This document shows positions 2,541-30,764 of a DNA stretch of 64,000 nt, piece after piece; within the stretch, counting starts at the first letter, position 1; every line of letters begins with the position of its first letter. Location: the IMG/VR virus record IMGVR_UViG_3300021420_000021, positions 1 through 64,000 of that record. One strand, given 5' to 3'. The DNA is from a virus. The notes below the pieces were generated by a model. The model was not told where the DNA came from, did no database searches, and worked only from the letters and a program-made list of their open reading frames with translations. The translations under genes and the position numbers were made by a program.

Positions 2541-3065
2541 CTAAATCGTAATGCCCGCGACTGCGATTTGTGCTTTCTGCTTATCCGATTCGACTAGATA
2601 TCTCATTGTCGAACTTGGGTCTTTATGGCGCAAATAAGATTGGATCATTCCAAGATTATGCGTCTTGTCCCACAATAGCATTGCCATCGAATGACGTAAC
2701 GCGTGCATGTGCGCTTTCTTCGGGTGAATACCAGCAATCGCCGCATATCGTTTGATAAACTCATCGGCCCGTTGGCGCGAGAAATTGAATATCCGGCCCG
2801 GATTACTGGCCGCGAGCATCAAAACGGGCGAACAATCAAACAATGGATCATTGTCTATATGTATCGGCGGAAGATCGTTATTCCCGCCTTTGAGTGCTCC
2901 GATTGCGATCAGCCCGGATTGAATATCGCGCCCGCATATCGCCAAAGCTTCAGACACGCGCGTCGCGTGCCACAAAGACATGCACAAGAACAGATGATGC
3001 GTGCGATTATGATCGTGCGCCACAGACATAAGTGCACGAAGTTCGGGTTTAGTGAGATATTCCAT
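2541..3065 (-). CDS. Tyrosine recombinase, catalytic domain only (174 aa)
   Basis: R (TRVSE), K (LKGG), HxxR (HALRH), H (LRH), Y (MRY). Confidence 0.88.
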   Translation of the reverse strand: MEYLTKPELRALMSVAHDHNRTHHLFLCMSLWHATRVSEALAICGRDIQSGLIAIGALKGGNNDLPPIHIDNDPLFDCSPVLMLAASNPGRIFNFSRQRADEFIKRYAAIAGIHPKKAHMHALRHSMAMLLWDKTHNLGMIQSYLRHKDPSSTMRYLVESDKQKAQIAVAGITI

Positions 3066-3714: not shown

Positions 3715-4224
3715 ATGACACTGGAAGAACGACAAGAAGATATGCGTGTGCGGCAATCAAAGCCAGCACAAGCCAAGATTCAGCCCAAAGGCAAGCGCTC
3801 GGGCAAGACTGAGTATTACATATACTTTATACAAGGTGCATTATCAGAGCGTATCAAGATCGGCATTGCGACTTGTCCGAATGCACGATTGAAAGACATG
3901 CAAGCGGGCTGCACTGAGCGATTGACAATCATTGGCACATTGCGGACAGGGACGACAGACCGAATGCGGGCCGAACAAATGGAGCGTAATATACATGACC
4001 AGTTCAAGCACTGTCATGCATTCGCGGAAGTATTCGAGTGTACACAGTCGTTGCTTGAGCTAGCGAAGACAGGTACAGAGCACAAGTGCAGGTATTGCCC
4101 ATCGGATATGCGAATCAAAAGCCCTTGGGAGCGATGCCACGTTGACCGTTTGACTACGCCGATAGCGCCTTATGCGAATACTGTGTCAAATCCAACACAC
4201 TGTCTACAATTTGACACACTCTGA
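3715..4224 (+). CDS. GIY-YIG nuclease family protein (T5orf172/Mug113-like)
   Basis: YIYFIQ...RIKIG...PNARLKDMQAG...ERNIHDQF...EVF. Confidence 0.8.
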   Translation: MTLEERQEDMRVRQSKPAQAKIQPKGKRSGKTEYYIYFIQGALSERIKIGIATCPNARLKDMQAGCTERLTIIGTLRTGTTDRMRAEQMERNIHDQFKHCHAFAEVFECTQSLLELAKTGTEHKCRYCPSDMRIKSPWERCHVDRLTTPIAPYANTVSNPTHCLQFDTL

Positions 4225-5563: not shown

Positions 5564-5888
5564 TAGAAGTCATCGGATGCATTTTAATCGTCTTGCCCGA
5601 TTTCTTATTCTTATTAGGCACAAATAATATCGACTTGTGTTCCGGATCAGGCTGCGATTTCGATTCTTCGGGCGGAACTTCGTTCTTATAAACGAACAAA
5701 CCTGACGGTGTAACTAATAACGGATATTTCTTTCCGGCGACAGTCGTTTCATCTTCGAACGGAATTGTTTCTTGCGTGCAAGTTTCTTTGACTATCTTAT
5801 CGCATTCGTCGCATCCTAAGAACGCGCCGATATTATGATCCCATTCGCCGCAGCACGGCGTAGAGTTATATTCAGGGCACTTACTCAC
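5517..5888 (-). CDS. Hypothetical protein
   Basis: ORF track; overlap-coupled. Confidence 0.6.
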   Translation of the reverse strand: MSKCPEYNSTPCCGEWDHNIGAFLGCDECDKIVKETCTQETIPFEDETTVAGKKYPLLVTPSGLFVYKNEVPPEESKSQPDPEHKSILFVPNKNKKSGKTIKMHPMTSIAIRSKTADKDKDHA

Positions 5889-6331
5889 GACTCGCGCCTC
5901 ATCTTCAATCCATCAACAAACTTATCTCCCATATTATAATAATTCTTCGCGACTTCGATGACACGAAATCCGTGATCGAAATATAATTTCTGAACCGGAG
6001 AATCGGCCCGACAATGAAGTTCTAAACTTTTATACTTTGTACAAACGTGCGCGAGTAACTGTGACCCGCGCCCGCATTTCTGCCAATTAGAGTGAACCGC
6101 GAGTGACCACAGGTAAGGAATTGTTTCTCCGACTTCTTTTACGATCACAAAACCAATTGGCTTAACGATACCATTGTAGGCGACTGGTTCCCAAGCAACC
6201 CAAGTCTCAGATACAGAAAGCATCTGCCGGAATTCTTCTCGTGTTGGTCGTTCATCGCCGTCATAACAAGAATCATTAATTGCGAGAAGATGATCGAATT
6301 GATAAGTTCGATACCCTTGGTCGATTTTCAT
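5885..6331 (-). CDS. GNAT family N-acetyltransferase (RimI-like)
   Basis: SLAVHSNWQKCGRGSQLL motif A; LYFDHGF...NYY. Confidence 0.85.
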   Translation of the reverse strand: MKIDQGYRTYQFDHLLAINDSCYDGDERPTREEFRQMLSVSETWVAWEPVAYNGIVKPIGFVIVKEVGETIPYLWSLAVHSNWQKCGRGSQLLAHVCTKYKSLELHCRADSPVQKLYFDHGFRVIEVAKNYYNMGDKFVDGLKMRRES

Positions 6332-6891
6332 TATGCGACCGCCAACGGGTCTTTATAACCTTGGGCGATCTTCTTCAACATGATCTTGTTAATCTCAGAA
6401 ATAGAATACGGCGTAAAATTATTCCCGTCAACGCCGACATCGAGGCTCAACCCATACGCGGGCAATTGATTGTGACTGTGCCCGAAAAGATGATAAGAAC
6501 CTTTGTGCGAACTCGGCCAAACGCGGTGCGCGTAATGCGACATAAATATTTTCGGAGCGCCGTCTTGACGAATTAACAGAACATCGGCAGTTCGTTCAAA
6601 TCCCGGTTCGACATCGATCATTTTCTCGGCAGTTGAATCGTGATTGCCCCAAATAAGAATGTGTCGCCCATTTAATCGATTGAGAATATTCGTCGCATCT
6701 TCTACAGATACCGATTGCCAAAAGATATCTCCGAGATGATACGTCAGGCCGTTCGGCGGAACTTTCGCGTTGTGATTGGCAATCAGCGTCTCACGCATGT
6801 GATTGATATCAGAGAACGGACGATTGCAATAAGTGATTATGTTTCGATGATTATAATGCTCATCGGCGGTAAAGTAAATCGGCTGACTCAT
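6331..6891 (-). CDS. Calcineurin-like metallophosphoesterase
   Basis: ADEH, HLGD, WGNHD, SHY, FGHSH, DVGVD; ATG start at 6891. Confidence 0.9.
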   Translation of the reverse strand: MSQPIYFTADEHYNHRNIITYCNRPFSDINHMRETLIANHNAKVPPNGLTYHLGDIFWQSVSVEDATNILNRLNGRHILIWGNHDSTAEKMIDVEPGFERTADVLLIRQDGAPKIFMSHYAHRVWPSSHKGSYHLFGHSHNQLPAYGLSLDVGVDGNNFTPYSISEINKIMLKKIAQGYKDPLAVA

Positions 6892-7052
6892 AGTTTCTCC
6901 AAAGCTTCCCAAGCTTCTTCCGCCAAAAACTGCGCATCTTCAACGTTGTGGGAATGATTTTTTCCGCGCATACAATTTTCATCATATCAAACTGCGGCAT
7001 AAGACGCAAGAAACGTCACGATATAAGAATTAATAAACTGTTTCTTCTCCAT
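6888..7052 (-). pseudogene. Small gene with an in-frame TGA at codon 22
   Basis: MEKKQFINSYIVTFLASYAAV*YDENCMRGKNHSHNVEDAQFLAEEAWEALEKL*; GAGG SD, ATGA overlap with the next gene. Confidence 0.6.
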
Positions 7053-7196
7053 AAACGCCTCACCAAGAAACTGTTGTACCTATACAAAAACAAAAGAACC
7101 AATACAGCGATTGCCGCCATTCACGCTGCAACAAATACGCTATACTGATTATGAGACTTCCGACCGAAGATGTCAACGCTAAAGTTCGGCCCCAAT

Positions 7197-7358
7197 TCAA
7201 GATTTAACAATCGGGGTTCGGCCCTCGACAGCCTCTTGACATCGTTGCGAACAATATTCATTCGTCTTCTCGGCGGTCGATAAAGTAAAATACGACATCG
7301 TTCCGCCAGAGAGACATTTCGGATTCAAACACAATTTTTCTTTTGTATATGTATTCAT
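7197..7358 (-). CDS. Small Cys-containing hypothetical protein (MNTYTKEKLC...)
   Basis: GAGGTG SD before the internal ATG. Confidence 0.6.
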   Translation of the reverse strand: MNTYTKEKLCLNPKCLSGGTMSYFTLSTAEKTNEYCSQRCQEAVEGRTPIVKS

Positions 7359-7374
7359 GATCACCTCGTAAAAA

Positions 7375-7670
7375 ATTTGCCGGGTTTCTGTTTCCAAGTA
7401 CCCGGCGAACTCAGTCTACGCCCCTGCGGACGCAGACATCGCTTTCACGTTAGTGTTAGCGTTTATGGTTTCTGTGTCCTTAACGCGGCCACAGCATTCG
7501 TGTCCATCCATTGCTAATTCATCGCCGCCATCGATAACCAGTATCAGGCCCATCAAAGAGTCTTGCGAATAACCGCCTAACGATGCCTTCGCATCTAGAT
7601 TACACGAAGACCCTTTGGTGGACCTGCCCGGATTCGAACCGGGGTGTGACAACGGAAATAACAACTTCAT
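7375..7670 (-). ncRNA. ssrA: Circularly permuted (two-piece) tmRNA
   Basis: T-arm GGTTCGAATCC plus CAGGTCCACCA (ends 7616) precede a 64-nt intervening segment and the 5' acceptor strand GGGCCTG (G1=7551, G3-U70 pair); tag frame ANTNVKAMSASAGA* at 7460-7416. Confidence 0.9.
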
Positions 7671-7687
7671 CTGAACAAATTTACAAA

Positions 7688-7978
7688 TTAAAACTCTAGA
7701 CTTTCTTTAACATCCGCAATTGCTTCGGAATATCCGTCATCGAATCCGTCGCTATATTGTTCAAAAACAAAATCGTCTTCAGTTAGTTCTACTCCGCAAT
7801 CGGTACAAGTTTCAGGCGCGTCTGCCTTTAAAGATTCCGATTTCGGATCGTAAGTTTGTTCTGCGGCATTAGTTTGCGCGAACTGTGACTTAATCTGCCC
7901 ATCACGCAAACCGTCTTCATAGCCTTCTGATCGTGCGCCCCACAACAAGTTATTTAAATCTGCTACTGTAATATTCAT
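7688..7978 (-). CDS. Acidic hypothetical protein
   Basis: ORF track; AAGGA SD. Confidence 0.7.
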   Translation of the reverse strand: MNITVADLNNLLWGARSEGYEDGLRDGQIKSQFAQTNAAEQTYDPKSESLKADAPETCTDCGVELTEDDFVFEQYSDGFDDGYSEAIADVKESLEF

Positions 7979-8604: not shown

Positions 8605-8796
8605 TTACTTCTTTTCTTTCTTGTTGTCAAGTTCTTTTTCAATAAACGTATGATAAAAAACTGCGTGTAAGTGCCATCCGGCGCAAAGTCCAGTAACTAA
8701 CTTTCTTGTCTTAGACTTACAGTCGAACGCTTCGGCGATTGCAAGTCCAGCGAGAACAGCGTGAGTCAGTGCCTTCAAATCTTTTTCTCTAAACAT
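8605..8796 (-). CDS. Small hypothetical protein
   Basis: ORF track. Confidence 0.55.
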   Translation of the reverse strand: MFREKDLKALTHAVLAGLAIAEAFDCKSKTRKLVTGLCAGWHLHAVFYHTFIEKELDNKKEKK

Positions 8797-9338
8797 CGTA
8801 TTATCCGATCTAGTTTACGTTTTACCTTTTTCTCTTCTGCTTGATCTTTATAGCTCATCCAAGCACAATTACTCGGTTCATAATTGCCGATATCACCAAA
8901 CCGCCCTAAAGTTGTTTCATCAGGACGTTCACCCATATCACTAAGAAAATTTTTAAATGTAAGCCAACGTTTACAAACTTTAACACCTGCCGCGCCATAA
9001 CAATAATACTCTTTATGATTAGGATTACCACAACGTTGTTTCATTCCGTGCCAACTATGATATGTCGGACTACATCGATATCCGGAATGGCCGTGAATTA
9101 CTTGATCTTGTCTATTCTCTGCTAGCGCTATTGCCGACCGTTCACGTTGTAAACACCCGCACGATTGTGATCGTCCACTAAGAAGAGTAGTGCATAGTAT
9201 ATTTTTTAGCGATCCACAATCACAAACAGTCAACCATTTATAATTACCGCGTATCGATACGCCAACGGGCCATTGTGCTACCAGCCGCCCGAATCGTGAT
9301 CCTGCAATATCATTAATTTTTCTCCATCCTTTTGCCAT
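8775..9338 (-). CDS. HNH-like homing endonuclease (possibly degenerate active site)
   Basis: RFGRL...CDCG...SCGC...YGAAGV...FLSDMGERP...YEPSNCAW; LGRFG in place of the usual LDRID. Confidence 0.75.
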   Translation of the reverse strand: MAKGWRKINDIAGSRFGRLVAQWPVGVSIRGNYKWLTVCDCGSLKNILCTTLLSGRSQSCGCLQRERSAIALAENRQDQVIHGHSGYRCSPTYHSWHGMKQRCGNPNHKEYYCYGAAGVKVCKRWLTFKNFLSDMGERPDETTLGRFGDIGNYEPSNCAWMSYKDQAEEKKVKRKLDRIIRCLEKKI

Positions 9339-11306
9339 TCATCCTTTCCGATAAATCTGTCCTTGATATCCTTCAACCGCAAGGGGTATATCTTCGCCCC
9401 ATGTTGGTGACTTAACCATGCACTCTTCAAACATATCATAAGTAAGCAGAGATGTCAAGGGTGTTTCGCAAACAATTTCGTCATGTACATGTAAAACAAT
9501 TTCAAACCCGGCTTCAGTAGCGTTCATCATTCCGTTGACAAGAAGATCACGAGCGATTGCTTGAACAACGTTTTCAACTAACGACGACCCGCGAGCTTCA
9601 ATTACGCCCCATCCGCCGCCAGCGCCTCCGGGACCGTAATACTTCACGATCTTCTTCATGTACATATCGACATCGATAAACGGTTTGTCGTAATGAAGTG
9701 CTCGACCGCTTGGCAATACGATATGCAGCATGTTCGGATCACGACCGTCAATCCGTAACGGCCCGAGTTGGTATTGTTCTTTAAATGTCACGGCTCGCAC
9801 TGCCGCATTTCCGAGAGCTTTCCAATAATCAGGAACTTCCGGGTATGCTTCGCGCCACGCGTAAACAAGTTCTTTAGCTTGGTCTTCTGTGATCTTCTGA
9901 CCCATTTGCGCGGCGTATGCAATTAGCCGATTCCAACCCATGCCGAATCCGCAACCGAGAACCGGAGACTTGCAAAAGTTTCTTTGCGCTTTCGTAACTT
10001 CATCGTAAGAGATTTTGTACATCAGCGCCGCAAATGACTTATACGGATCAAGACCTTTCTGGAAGACTTGTAACATTCCCGGACACTGCGCGAGCCAAGC
10101 GAGAACGCGGTTTTCAATCGAAGAATAATCTGCGACCATGAGTTGTTTGCCTTTAGGCGCTTGCACGCTCGCACGTAACGTTCCGCCGATAGCTTCAATC
10201 GGATGAATGTTCGCGGGCATATTCGCCGCGTTCATAATCGCCGTAACAATCGCGTCATAATTTTCAGCTACTTGCTTTGTCGGCTTTAGCAGATTATGGA
10301 ATTGAACTCCTCGACTTGCCCATCGGCCTGTATGCGCCGCGTGATAGGTAAATGCTTCGCACAGCCGCTCATTGCGCGTTCGATTCTGAATAACGGGTAA
10401 TTTCTTGAACGCGATTCCGCCGAGTAATTGCTTTAACTCAAGAACATCACGAACGTTCTGACTAAGATTAGTTTCAAGCGCGGCAACAACATGGCTTTTA
10501 TCAAGACTGTCAAAAGACAAACCTTGCTGATCAAACCATGATTTTAACTGCGCGGGCGAGTTCGGATTTGCACATCCGGTCAATACTTTCAACTGTTCAA
10601 TAATCCCGGCTCGGGCGCTTTCCGCAATCGCCAATGCCTTGCCGACAAATTCAAGATTAATAGGAATTCCGCGTTGGTTAATTTTTTGATCAAGAATCCA
10701 TGTCTTGCGCTCGATTTCCGGAAACGGCGCTTTCTTTTCCAGTTCATGAAGAATTGCTCGTTCAGATACAACATCTTGTACGCAGTATAATCCAAAAGTT
10801 TTCCATTCTTCAGGATTCGTAATCCAATCTTTAAAGTGCGCCGGAACTTTCTTTGTCGCCCGAGTTGGCATTGAAAACATTTTGATCAACTTCTTACCAA
10901 TAGGATTCTTTGCAAACTCCTGCGGCAAGCTAAGCGCATCGCCCGCATCCGCAAGATGACCCGGATATCCAAGGTATCGAGCATAGGCCATCGGGTCAAA
11001 CCATTCTTCAATCTTCAGCGGTATTTGTAAAACCGCGCTGATAATTGAGAACTCAAAACCGACATTCCATGAAATTTTCGTGATCGTATTATTTGTAAGT
11101 GCAGAAAGTAAATCTTCCGGTATCGACCCGAGATGCGGCTCCCACAATGAAACCGGGCCGTCATCGAACGCATACGCGAGCATCAAAACCTTTGTATCTG
11201 CATGATTCGCATAGACATCCGTGCCGACCTTCTTCAGATCAACAGTTGACGCCGTTTCGCAATCTAGGTGGAGTCGCATAAGTCCTTTGTTTCTGTCACT
11301 CGCCAT
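9339..11306 (-). CDS. polA: DNA polymerase, family A, with 3'-5' exonuclease
   Basis: ExoI LDCET; HTGRW; motif A ADYSSIE; motif B RxxxKxxxLGxxFG; motif C HVHDEIV. Confidence 0.95.
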   Translation of the reverse strand: MASDRNKGLMRLHLDCETASTVDLKKVGTDVYANHADTKVLMLAYAFDDGPVSLWEPHLGSIPEDLLSALTNNTITKISWNVGFEFSIISAVLQIPLKIEEWFDPMAYARYLGYPGHLADAGDALSLPQEFAKNPIGKKLIKMFSMPTRATKKVPAHFKDWITNPEEWKTFGLYCVQDVVSERAILHELEKKAPFPEIERKTWILDQKINQRGIPINLEFVGKALAIAESARAGIIEQLKVLTGCANPNSPAQLKSWFDQQGLSFDSLDKSHVVAALETNLSQNVRDVLELKQLLGGIAFKKLPVIQNRTRNERLCEAFTYHAAHTGRWASRGVQFHNLLKPTKQVAENYDAIVTAIMNAANMPANIHPIEAIGGTLRASVQAPKGKQLMVADYSSIENRVLAWLAQCPGMLQVFQKGLDPYKSFAALMYKISYDEVTKAQRNFCKSPVLGCGFGMGWNRLIAYAAQMGQKITEDQAKELVYAWREAYPEVPDYWKALGNAAVRAVTFKEQYQLGPLRIDGRDPNMLHIVLPSGRALHYDKPFIDVDMYMKKIVKYYGPGGAGGGWGVIEARGSSLVENVVQAIARDLLVNGMMNATEAGFEIVLHVHDEIVCETPLTSLLTYDMFEECMVKSPTWGEDIPLAVEGYQGQIYRKG

Positions 11307-28817: not shown

Positions 28818-29453
28818 TTGAGTTTTAGTCCTTCAGGGAATCAACTCTCTAACCTCCCGCAATCTACCGTAAAATTTTACGATAAAAAATTCCGGGAAAA
28901 TCTAAAGGCCCAGACGCCATTCGTGGCTTGCGCCGAACGTCTCAATTTGCCTACCAACTCTGGTAATCAATATGAGATGTTCATGTACGTCCCCTTAGCA
29001 GCCAACACCAATCAAACGACCGAAGGTACTGTCGGATCGTCTTTGAGTGCTAGCGTGCTAACAACCACGGCTACGATTGGTGAATATGCCGATTACGCTA
29101 ACTTCTCTTCGCTAAGTCTTGCAACTGCAATCGACAATACTGTCGAGAACGTCGCGAAGGAAATGTCTTATCGCCTTGGCGAAAGTCTGTCCGCTCTCGT
29201 TCGTGCAACTTGCGACGGCGCGAACAGCATCGATTCTAGCGTGCTGACTCAGTTGGCCGCGACTTCGACTTCGAGCTTTACCGCTCTGTCGTTGTCCCAG
29301 ATTCGAAATAGCGTCCAGTCACTTGCTGGCCGTTCTGTCCGTCCGTTCGATGAAGCGAGTAAGAGCTTCATCGGAGTCATCCATCCTTTCGCCCTTGGCG
29401 ATGTGTTGGCTGACAATAGCAACGATTCGCCTATCGATATCCTGAAGCACACT
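28818..29453 (+). CDS. Major capsid protein (N4-gp56-like), exon 1
   Basis: FYDKKFRENLKAQT, EG, ATIGEYADY, FIGVIHP; ends ...ILKHT at the 5' splice site. Confidence 0.88.
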
Positions 29454-29510
29454 TTAATTCTATTGGGGTGTGTATAAACTTAACTATATCGGGGAACATC
29501 AAGATTTCTC

Positions 29511-30368: not shown

Positions 30369-30764
30369 CCAGTTGGACAAGCTAAGATGGACGAACTCGT
30401 CTCGGTCGATTTGACCGAAGTTATCGAGTTGCCGTCTAGCGGAGTGCAATTCTTTCAGACTAACCTAGTCACTCAAAGTAACAATTACAAGTCTGTTGCT
30501 GGACTTGTAGGTCTTCGGACTTACATTTTTGGCAGAGACGGCGTATTTGCTATCAATCTAGGTGCAAAAGGCGACACTGGCTATGGTGATGGCGAGTGGC
30601 GGAATATAGAATGCAATATTATGCAGAACGTTGCACCGACCGTCGCGGACCCCGAAGGCCTCATACCGGGATGGACTTCTTACAGAGTTCATTTCACCAC
30701 GAGCCTCGGACCCGATACTACGATTCGGCAGAGACAAATTGATGCCGCTTCAGCCATAAGCTAA
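30369..30764 (+). CDS. Major capsid protein, exon 2 (spliced product ~343 aa)
   Basis: In frame with exon 1 (HT|PVGQAKMDE...); RTYIFG, DPEG...GWTSY motifs. Confidence 0.82.
   Translation, partial: PVGQAKMDELVSVDLTEVIELPSSGVQFFQTNLVTQSNNYKSVAGLVGLRTYIFGRDGVFAINLGAKGDTGYGDGEWRNIECNIMQNVAPTVADPEGLIPGWTSYRVHFTTSLGPDTTIRQRQIDAASAIS

Follow-up and report, generated by a model that had tools for sequence, protein, structure and literature searches.

A circularly permuted, two-piece tmRNA gene in a Tunturi_3-like soil podovirus, with tag peptides that differ between clades

Introduction

Transfer-messenger RNA (tmRNA) genes are an established component of phage genomes. The Melnitz study found them in 402 of 18,146 phage genomes, with 133 unique structures, of which 53 were two-piece and 50 of these 53 aquatic (PMC9004378), and a tmRNA database holds 79 phage tmRNA sequences (PMC11915505). 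Two-piece tmRNAs function in Caulobacter and also occur in phages (PMC9004378). Because Table S1 of the Melnitz study contains ARAGORN 'Permuted' calls in Streptomyces, Stenotrophomonas and Citrobacter phages, a mismatch between the tmRNA form of a phage and that of its host is not new (PMC9004378). Here we describe a gene on the minus strand of a 64,000-nucleotide stretch of viral DNA (the window), which comprises the first 64 kb of the 94,266-bp IMG/VR record IMGVR_UViG_3300021420_000021 (CheckV completeness 99%), and which we consider, with a probability of about 0.8, to carry a functional, phage-encoded, circularly permuted (two-piece) tmRNA.

The phage belongs to a group whose cultured member is Tunturi_3 (PP885686.1), a 97.6-kb podovirus from Arctic tundra soil that infects the acidobacterium Tunturiibacter psychrotolerans (PMC11924767). 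An earlier note on the window had predicted the tmRNA from the sequence and implied that such a gene was a novelty, which is not the case given the phage two-piece tmRNAs already published (PMC9004378, PMC11915505). The points that we regard as mildly new are the soil Tunturi_3-like lineage, a host with a one-piece tmRNA in the cultured case, and clade-specific tags that mostly lack the usual -LAA end.

Results

A permuted tmRNA gene on the minus strand of the window

ARAGORN called a single RNA gene, both in the window and when run on the full 94,266-bp record, and no tRNA. The gene called was a permuted tmRNA, c[7325,7709], in which the 3' tRNA domain (positions 55–94 of the call) precedes the 5' tRNA domain (159–185). 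A scan of the window at Rfam gathering thresholds matched only a tmRNA, RF04321 (tmRNA_permuted), at 7428–7676 (−), with all 213 model positions matched and 52.7 bits against a threshold of 47; the same scan gave no match to the standard tmRNA model RF00023, to the alphaproteobacterial model RF01849 (threshold 50 bits) or to a glutamine riboswitch. The minimum free energy (MFE) fold of 7375–7680 (−) gave the same architecture (z = −5.5), and 0 of 100 shuffled sequences were as stable. ARAGORN, RF04321 and the fold, together with the covariation in 13 copies described below, bear out the phage-encoded permuted tmRNA that the earlier note had proposed. The comparison with ARAGORN and Rfam that the note had suggested gave a permuted call and an RF04321 match; the alpha and beta models stayed below their gathering thresholds. 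The whole gene, that is the precursor, spans about 7370–7687 (−) rather than the 7375–7670 first given, as its outer helix (7680–7673 with 7504–7496) runs past 7670.

The transcript would begin with the acceptor piece, which contains the 5' strand of this outer helix (7673–7680); its pairing with 7496–7504 was recovered by RNAalifold, and 3 of its 8 pairs were changed on both sides among 5 relatives. Next comes the acceptor-piece strand of helix 2 (7647–7665), whose partner is 7510–7530 (consensus structure, 4 double-change pairs), the coding-piece strands of helix 2 and the outer helix together occupying 7496–7530. For helix 2, the pairing TAGCAAT/GTTGTTA proposed earlier was recovered (7665–7659 with 7516–7510), but the companion pairing GATGGCGG/CCGTTGTC was 3 nt out of register: in both the consensus and the Rfam alignment the inner helix runs from C7648–G7529 through C7654–G7523. 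The T-arm (7627–7643) has a 5-bp stem, CCCGG/CCGGG, and a 7-nt loop, UUCGAAU; across 5 sequences, 100% of the stem is paired and 3 of its pairs are compensatory. The piece closes with the acceptor 3' strand CAGGUCC, the discriminator A7619 (A73) and an encoded CCA ending at 7616 (7616–7626; sequence and ARAGORN).

A 64-nt intervening segment (7552–7615) separates the two pieces; in the MFE fold it pairs with itself as a hairpin that stacks on the acceptor stem, and it is presumably discarded. The stem at its base shows compensatory changes (columns 78–81 with 206–209). The coding piece starts at G7551 with the acceptor 5' strand GGGCCUG (7545–7551), in which G3 (7549) lies opposite U (7622) as the alanine identity pair G3·U70. 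The CCA end, the length of the spacer, the start of the coding piece and this identity pair can all be read in the sequence as originally described. A D-loop analogue, AUACUGGUUAUCGA (7531–7544), without a D stem, was aligned to the RF04321 and RF01850 consensus sequences and is unchanged in the five closest relatives.

A consensus hairpin with 3 compensatory pairs (7472–7494), in the pseudoknot 1 (PK1) region, separates helix 2 from the resume codon. The tag frame called by ARAGORN (7416–7460) directly follows the resume context AUAAAC and extends over 14 codons, from the resume codon GCU (7460–7458) to the stop codon UAG (7418–7416), encoding ANTNVKAMSASAGA. The stop codon is contained in a 10-bp hairpin of the MFE fold (7414–7437), an analogue of helix 5. 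The gene ends in a terminal hairpin seen in sequence and fold (7370–7406), with the stem GCCGGGU...ACCCGGC (7406–7379), the loop motif CUUGGAAACAGAA, AAA and six U (7375–7370). Sequence, ARAGORN and fold agree with the resume context, tag frame and terminal hairpin of the earlier note. The hairpin and U-run are likely to represent both the 3' end and an intrinsic terminator; the hairpin is not among the sites listed by a simple terminator scan. In G964, a relative whose portal is 58% identical to that of the window phage, the stem of the terminal hairpin is compensated and its loop conserved. Downstream of the tag, the sequence passes through this hairpin and U-run to the ribosome-binding site and ATG of the next gene, and a reading of the sequence after the tag revealed no 3' T-arm or acceptor end.

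Contigs of related strains in soil runs X2 and X4 differ from the window at 7345–7457 and 7558–7613: either the tag/terminator region is replaced (111 bases skipped, 347 other letters) or most of the spacer is skipped. Tag and spacer appear to be the variable cassettes of the tmRNA gene in natural populations. A separate observation concerns G964 (L258), where the leader of the tmRNA is immediately preceded by ...CCATGTCCACCA, suggestive of a tRNA-like 3' end or a second acceptor end at this place.

Compensatory changes preserve the two-piece structure

Close relatives (L002/G806, L015, L017 and L018) were recovered by exact-pattern scans and a polymerase search. The RNAalifold consensus of five close relatives contained 56 pairs, with 91% of cells paired and 18 pairs changed on both sides. 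Values as high as these occurred in none of 500 column shuffles, and structures slid by moving the partner 1–3 columns were only 37–42% paired.

Covariation in the wider family was counted over 13 copies by means of a script that used the acceptor and T-arm as anchors. Acceptor pairs 1–3 were fixed in all copies (G–C, G–C and G·U), as was A73, while the pairs that follow were exchanged: pair 4 is CG or GC, pair 5 CG, UA, AU or GC, and pair 6 UA, CG or AU. The T-stem covaries as well, and a leader/coding-piece (helix 2) duplex of −18 to −32 kcal/mol was present in 13/13 copies even though their sequences diverge. Spacer lengths lie between 11 and 140 nt, with no conservation of sequence, as expected if this segment is discarded.

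The gene is a conserved part of Tunturi_3-like phage genomes

The window encodes a family-A DNA polymerase, an HNH endonuclease, a large terminase and a portal. The sole strong cultured relative of the terminase was that of Tunturi_3 (49.6% identity across 95% of the protein), and the two phages have about 40 genes in common, which are collinear (portal 59% and major head protein ~80% identical). In IMG/VR, 125 relatives of the portal were found, and words of the window were present at 92–97% in two soil metagenome runs besides the probable source run.

RF04321 exceeded its cut-off in G807, at 74 bits, and matches Tunturi_3 as well, at 63.3 bits (PP885686.1, 88172–88396 (−)), inside a 710-nt stretch without annotated features, downstream of the polymerase gene; tmRNA is absent from the text of the paper describing this phage (PMC11924767). 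This copy has the acceptor stem GGGCUUG/CAAGUCC, a 25-nt spacer and a tag ending in ...AQFATMLAA (L156:1501–1725, minus strand).

Among 16 longer related IMG/VR records scanned, RF04321 genes were present in 7, at 65–110 bits. All six related genomes that are 86–100% complete (four of them at least 90%, two 86–89%) scored above the cut-off, and the nine records without a match were all fragments at most 43% complete. Because the gene is carried by 7 of the 16 records, including every one that is 86–100% complete, and is missing only from fragments, it belongs to the conserved core genes of the Tunturi_3-like phage group.

The tag frame shows purifying selection and its end is clade-specific

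The tag of the window phage ends in -SAGA, and that of G964 reads ANTNVLAMSAAAGA. Between the two, 10 codons differ, 8 of them synonymously and 2 non-synonymously, and 9 of the 12 base differences fall at third positions. The synonymous fraction expected from random single-base changes in this frame is 26% (p ~6e-4). Because 8 of the 10 differing codons are synonymous compared to this expectation, we conclude that the tag frame is read and that purifying selection acts on it at the peptide level.

Tags are clade-specific within the phage family. They end in ...AGA in the window phage and G964, in ...AAHA in L018 and G968, in ...AAGL in G806, in ...AAGR/K in G962, L015 and L017, in ...AAAA in G807 (-AAAAA) and G967, and in ...MLAA in Tunturi_3. 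Between L015 and L017, the basic C-terminal residue was kept through a three-base codon change, CGC to AAA. A hydrophobic degron end of the form ...(L/V/Y)AA, a typical though not strictly defining feature, is absent from the window tag. The tag that ARAGORN called for G966 looks unreliable, as probably does the one for G965, and neither enters the conclusions.

Partners, expression and genomic context

No SmpB domain was found in the whole 94-kb genome or in seven relatives, which extends the absence of smpB that had been noted for the window. Because the phage genome encodes no SmpB domain, the tmRNA would have to use SmpB of the host, and host alanyl-tRNA synthetase (AlaRS), RNase P and EF-Tu would likewise have to serve it. 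The upstream open reading frame (ORF) 7688–7978 (stop codon 7690–7688) ends just before the leader, an arrangement in which co-transcription of the two is possible.

The same genome carries a T4 Rnl1-type RNA ligase (PF09511, 73 bits) at 80239–81390 (−) of the record (G000; L170:16239–17390), 31% identical to gp74 of Tunturi_3, and this ligase possibly belongs to a set of RNA-repair enzymes. In the record of Tunturi_3 there are annotations for two RNA ligases, an RNA 2'-phosphotransferase, a kinase and an RF-1-domain protein; an RF-1/ArfB-like domain was not found in the genome of the window phage. With the ligase and the RNA-repair and RF-1 genes of Tunturi_3 as circumstantial pointers, the tmRNA might have an anti-defence role, providing rescue against host defences that cleave RNA.

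Several neighbouring features were also recorded. An ORF at 6331–6912 (−) without a Pfam family is 41% identical to gp132 ('phosphoesterase') of Tunturi_3, and in each phage this gene follows the tmRNA on the same strand, even though their polymerases have no detectable relationship. The HNH endonuclease gene (8775–9338 (−)) adjoins the 3' end of the DNA polymerase gene (9339–11306) and lies between the polymerase and the tmRNA region. The homologue of the major head protein is split into ORFs 28818–29477 and 30387–30764 with about 900 bp between them, which fits an inserted element. Other genes of the window encode a pyrimidine-dimer DNA glycosylase (Pyr_excise, T4 endonuclease V type; 2057–2509 (−)), a 174-aa protein with only the catalytic domain of Phage_integrase (2541–3065 (−)), a T5orf172/MUG113-domain protein (3715–4224 (+)) and a GNAT acetyltransferase (5885–6331 (−)).

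Searches for the origin of the gene

A blastn search with the gene found no counterpart among 50,697 records of cultured phages. The invariant 21-mer at the 5' end of the coding piece is nowhere matched exactly in the representative genomes of 185,579 species, and of 119 sites that fit a looser D-loop pattern none lies within an ARAGORN-called tmRNA. BLAST against 401 genomes of a Burkholderiales-level order and 401 of Alphaproteobacteria returned only matches of ~20–36 nt. A 17-mer of the PK1 region was discarded, having only chance matches in viral contigs. A 25-mer of the T-arm and acceptor matched seven viral contigs with alpha-type, beta-type and other permuted tmRNAs, and was rejected as a lineage marker because it matches several tmRNA types. 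The terminal-hairpin loop motif CUUGGAAACAGAA is common to alpha- and beta-type phage copies; this gives a hint that the gene shares an ancestor with the proteobacterial permuted forms and was not permuted separately.

Discussion

The anatomy of the gene suggests the following course of events. Minus-strand transcription would proceed through about 7687–7370 and end at the terminal hairpin and U-run. In the precursor, the 5' leader would pair with the coding piece through helix 2 and the outer helix, the acceptor strands would form a 7-bp stem with G3·U70 and A73, and the 64-nt spacer would fold on itself. Host tRNA-processing enzymes would then remove the spacer, with RNase P cutting 5' of G7551 and other trimming back to the encoded CCA at 7616, leaving an acceptor piece and a coding piece joined by base pairing. 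After charging with alanine by host AlaRS, the RNA would be delivered to stalled ribosomes via host SmpB and EF-Tu; translation would resume at GCU 7460, add ANTNVKAMSASAGA and stop. The presumed benefit to the phage is that ribosome recycling is kept going during infection.

Several points weigh against a functional tmRNA in this phage. The lineage-specific Rfam models are far under threshold: beta_tmRNA RF01850 scores 34.1 bits against 84, although it was the best lineage model for the window copy and every relative examined with E-value thresholds (25–47 bits), and in the E-value scan the alpha model RF01849 fell below it and was dropped by clan competition. A scan of the minus strand upstream of the gene found no sigma-70-like promoter, and the only RNA run whose contigs share words with the stretch covers 7100–7203, outside the tmRNA. 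Compatibility with SmpB and AlaRS of the host of this phage is assumed. The tag end -AGA, compared to the -(L/Y)AA of acidobacterial tmRNAs, makes the classical degradation outcome uncertain.

Two explanations would deprive the locus of any function as a tmRNA. One is a detector artefact, in which a tRNA-like 3' half happens to lie beside the 5' half of a standard tmRNA. This mode of error is real: when RF04321 was tested on 151 acidobacterial genomes, five gave false positives of 50–58 bits (G932, G908, G896, G869 and G886; L162–L166), each located at a standard tmRNA gene, which in four cases has a tRNA-Asp gene directly before it and in the fifth is simply overlapped by the match. One of the 151, the unpublished genome G835, counts in the denominator only. 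An RF04321 score of about 50 bits alone therefore proves no permuted tmRNA, and because the model is fallible in this range the structure was checked independently. The idea of a permuted tmRNA native to Acidobacteriota was rejected for the same reason, as all five matches above the cut-off lie at standard tmRNA genes. At the window locus, by contrast, ARAGORN finds no tRNA in the whole genome, the tag is succeeded by a terminator and the next ribosome-binding site and ATG instead of a T-arm or acceptor end, the upstream acceptor strand is exactly complementary to the downstream one, and leader and coding piece pair with covariation. The gene anatomy already refutes an artefact, which we regard as scarcely credible. 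The other explanation, a non-functional relic, that is, a captured fragment or attachment-site copy of a bacterial tmRNA carried with a recombinase, could appeal to the small Phage_integrase-domain protein about 4.5 kb away (2541–3065 (−)) and to the fact that tmRNA genes are common integration sites (PMC4131195). Nevertheless, both pieces are present in full with their order permuted, compensatory and synonymous changes preserve structure and tag among phages whose portals are only 55–60% identical, and bacteria offered neither an exact match to the 21-mer nor a tmRNA among the looser matches, nor more than the short BLAST matches in 802 proteobacterial genomes; we consider a relic very improbable.

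A different alternative accepts the RNA as active and sees in it a competitor or re-tuner of host trans-translation, which captures SmpB and stalled ribosomes and adds a poor ClpXP degron, so that rescued products are undegraded or routed elsewhere and host tmRNA activity is blunted. Most of the tag ends in the family (-AGA, -AGR, -AGK, -AGL and -AHA) are indeed unlike the acidobacterial -ALAA/-AYAA, a basic C-terminal residue is retained between L015 and L017, and without a phage SmpB the RNA must draw on the host pool. Moreover, a phage RNA of the DS6A type, consisting of the tRNA-like domain only, reportedly inhibits tmRNA, which might come about through titration of SmpB (PMC4131195). Yet a pure SmpB sponge would have no need of the full mRNA-like domain and selected tag that are retained here, some members have near-canonical ends (Tunturi_3 -MLAA, G807 -AAAAA and G967 -AAAA), and a low degron strength of the family tags is an assumption of this explanation. 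We therefore consider competition with the host system unlikely, although clearly less so than a relic, and favour a phage tmRNA that carries out ribosome rescue.

A more speculative extension of the functional tmRNA is that these genes form a phage-only clade of two-piece tmRNA, core in widespread soil podoviruses with one-piece tmRNA hosts (Acidobacteriota in the cultured case), and that their tags have been re-tuned clade by clade (-AGA, -AGR/K, -AHA and -AGL) so as to change the outcome of trans-translation, giving rescue without ClpXP-type degradation, or another fate, instead of mere added capacity. Taken as a whole, we hold this combination of claims only tentatively, at odds well short of even.

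These findings matter in three respects. Phage two-piece tmRNAs extend beyond aquatic T4-like phages to a common soil phage group. Tunturi_3 on Tunturiibacter psychrotolerans provides a cultured, tractable pair in which the tmRNA is unannotated in the published phage genome, and in which it can be tested whether a phage tmRNA works with SmpB and AlaRS of a one-piece host and what non-canonical tags do to rescued proteins. There is also a pitfall for annotation, since RF04321 may pass its cut-off at a standard tmRNA, in four of the five cases here with a tRNA gene just upstream.

Compared to the closest described systems, the gene is most similar in organization to that of Melnitz and pelagimyophages such as Mosig (PMC9004378), which likewise carry a complete permuted ssrA in a lytic-looking tailed phage with phage smpB unreported, with the same gene order of acceptor piece, spacer and coding piece and the same permuted call by ARAGORN. 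Those phages are aquatic T4-like myophages, whereas the window phage belongs to a soil podovirus group of ~94 kb related to Tunturi_3, and its tmRNA differs from theirs in that the Rfam scan of the window found no glutamine riboswitch, in being far from the alpha type and weakly beta-like, and in its tag end -AGA. With the betaproteobacterial form (RF01850; Sharkady and Williams 2004, cited in PMC9004378) it shares a CUGGUU-type D-loop and a terminal hairpin loop resembling CUUGnnAACAGAA, but the D-loop region of the window copy has two 1-nt insertions, spacer and tag differ, and no close bacterial counterpart was found in the genomes searched. With the two-piece tmRNA of Caulobacter and other alphaproteobacteria (RF01849; Keiler, Shapiro and Williams 2000, cited in PMC9004378) it would share the logic of maturation, the spacer being cut from a single precursor by tRNA-processing enzymes. 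Alanine identity elements are common to both, and the terminal-hairpin loop motif recurs in an alpha-type phage copy (L003); the -AVAA/-ALAA type of tag end is absent from the window tag. Bxz1 and the C1 cluster of mycobacteriophages, Bacillus phage G and DS6A (PMC4131195) resemble the window phage in carrying ssrA without a phage smpB, but the tmRNAs of Bxz1/C1 and phage G are unpermuted and one-piece, and the RNA of DS6A is a tRNA-like domain only, without a tag frame. Finally, tmRNAs of Acidobacteriota, the phylum of the Tunturi_3 host, are one-piece (RF00023, 117–188 bits) with the tags ANNFALAA, ANDFALAA, ANSNLAYAA and ANNQLALAA. Compared to this form the phage gene is permuted and lacks pseudoknots 2–4, but the two have in common the consensus elements of the tRNA-like domain and the AN with which the tag begins.

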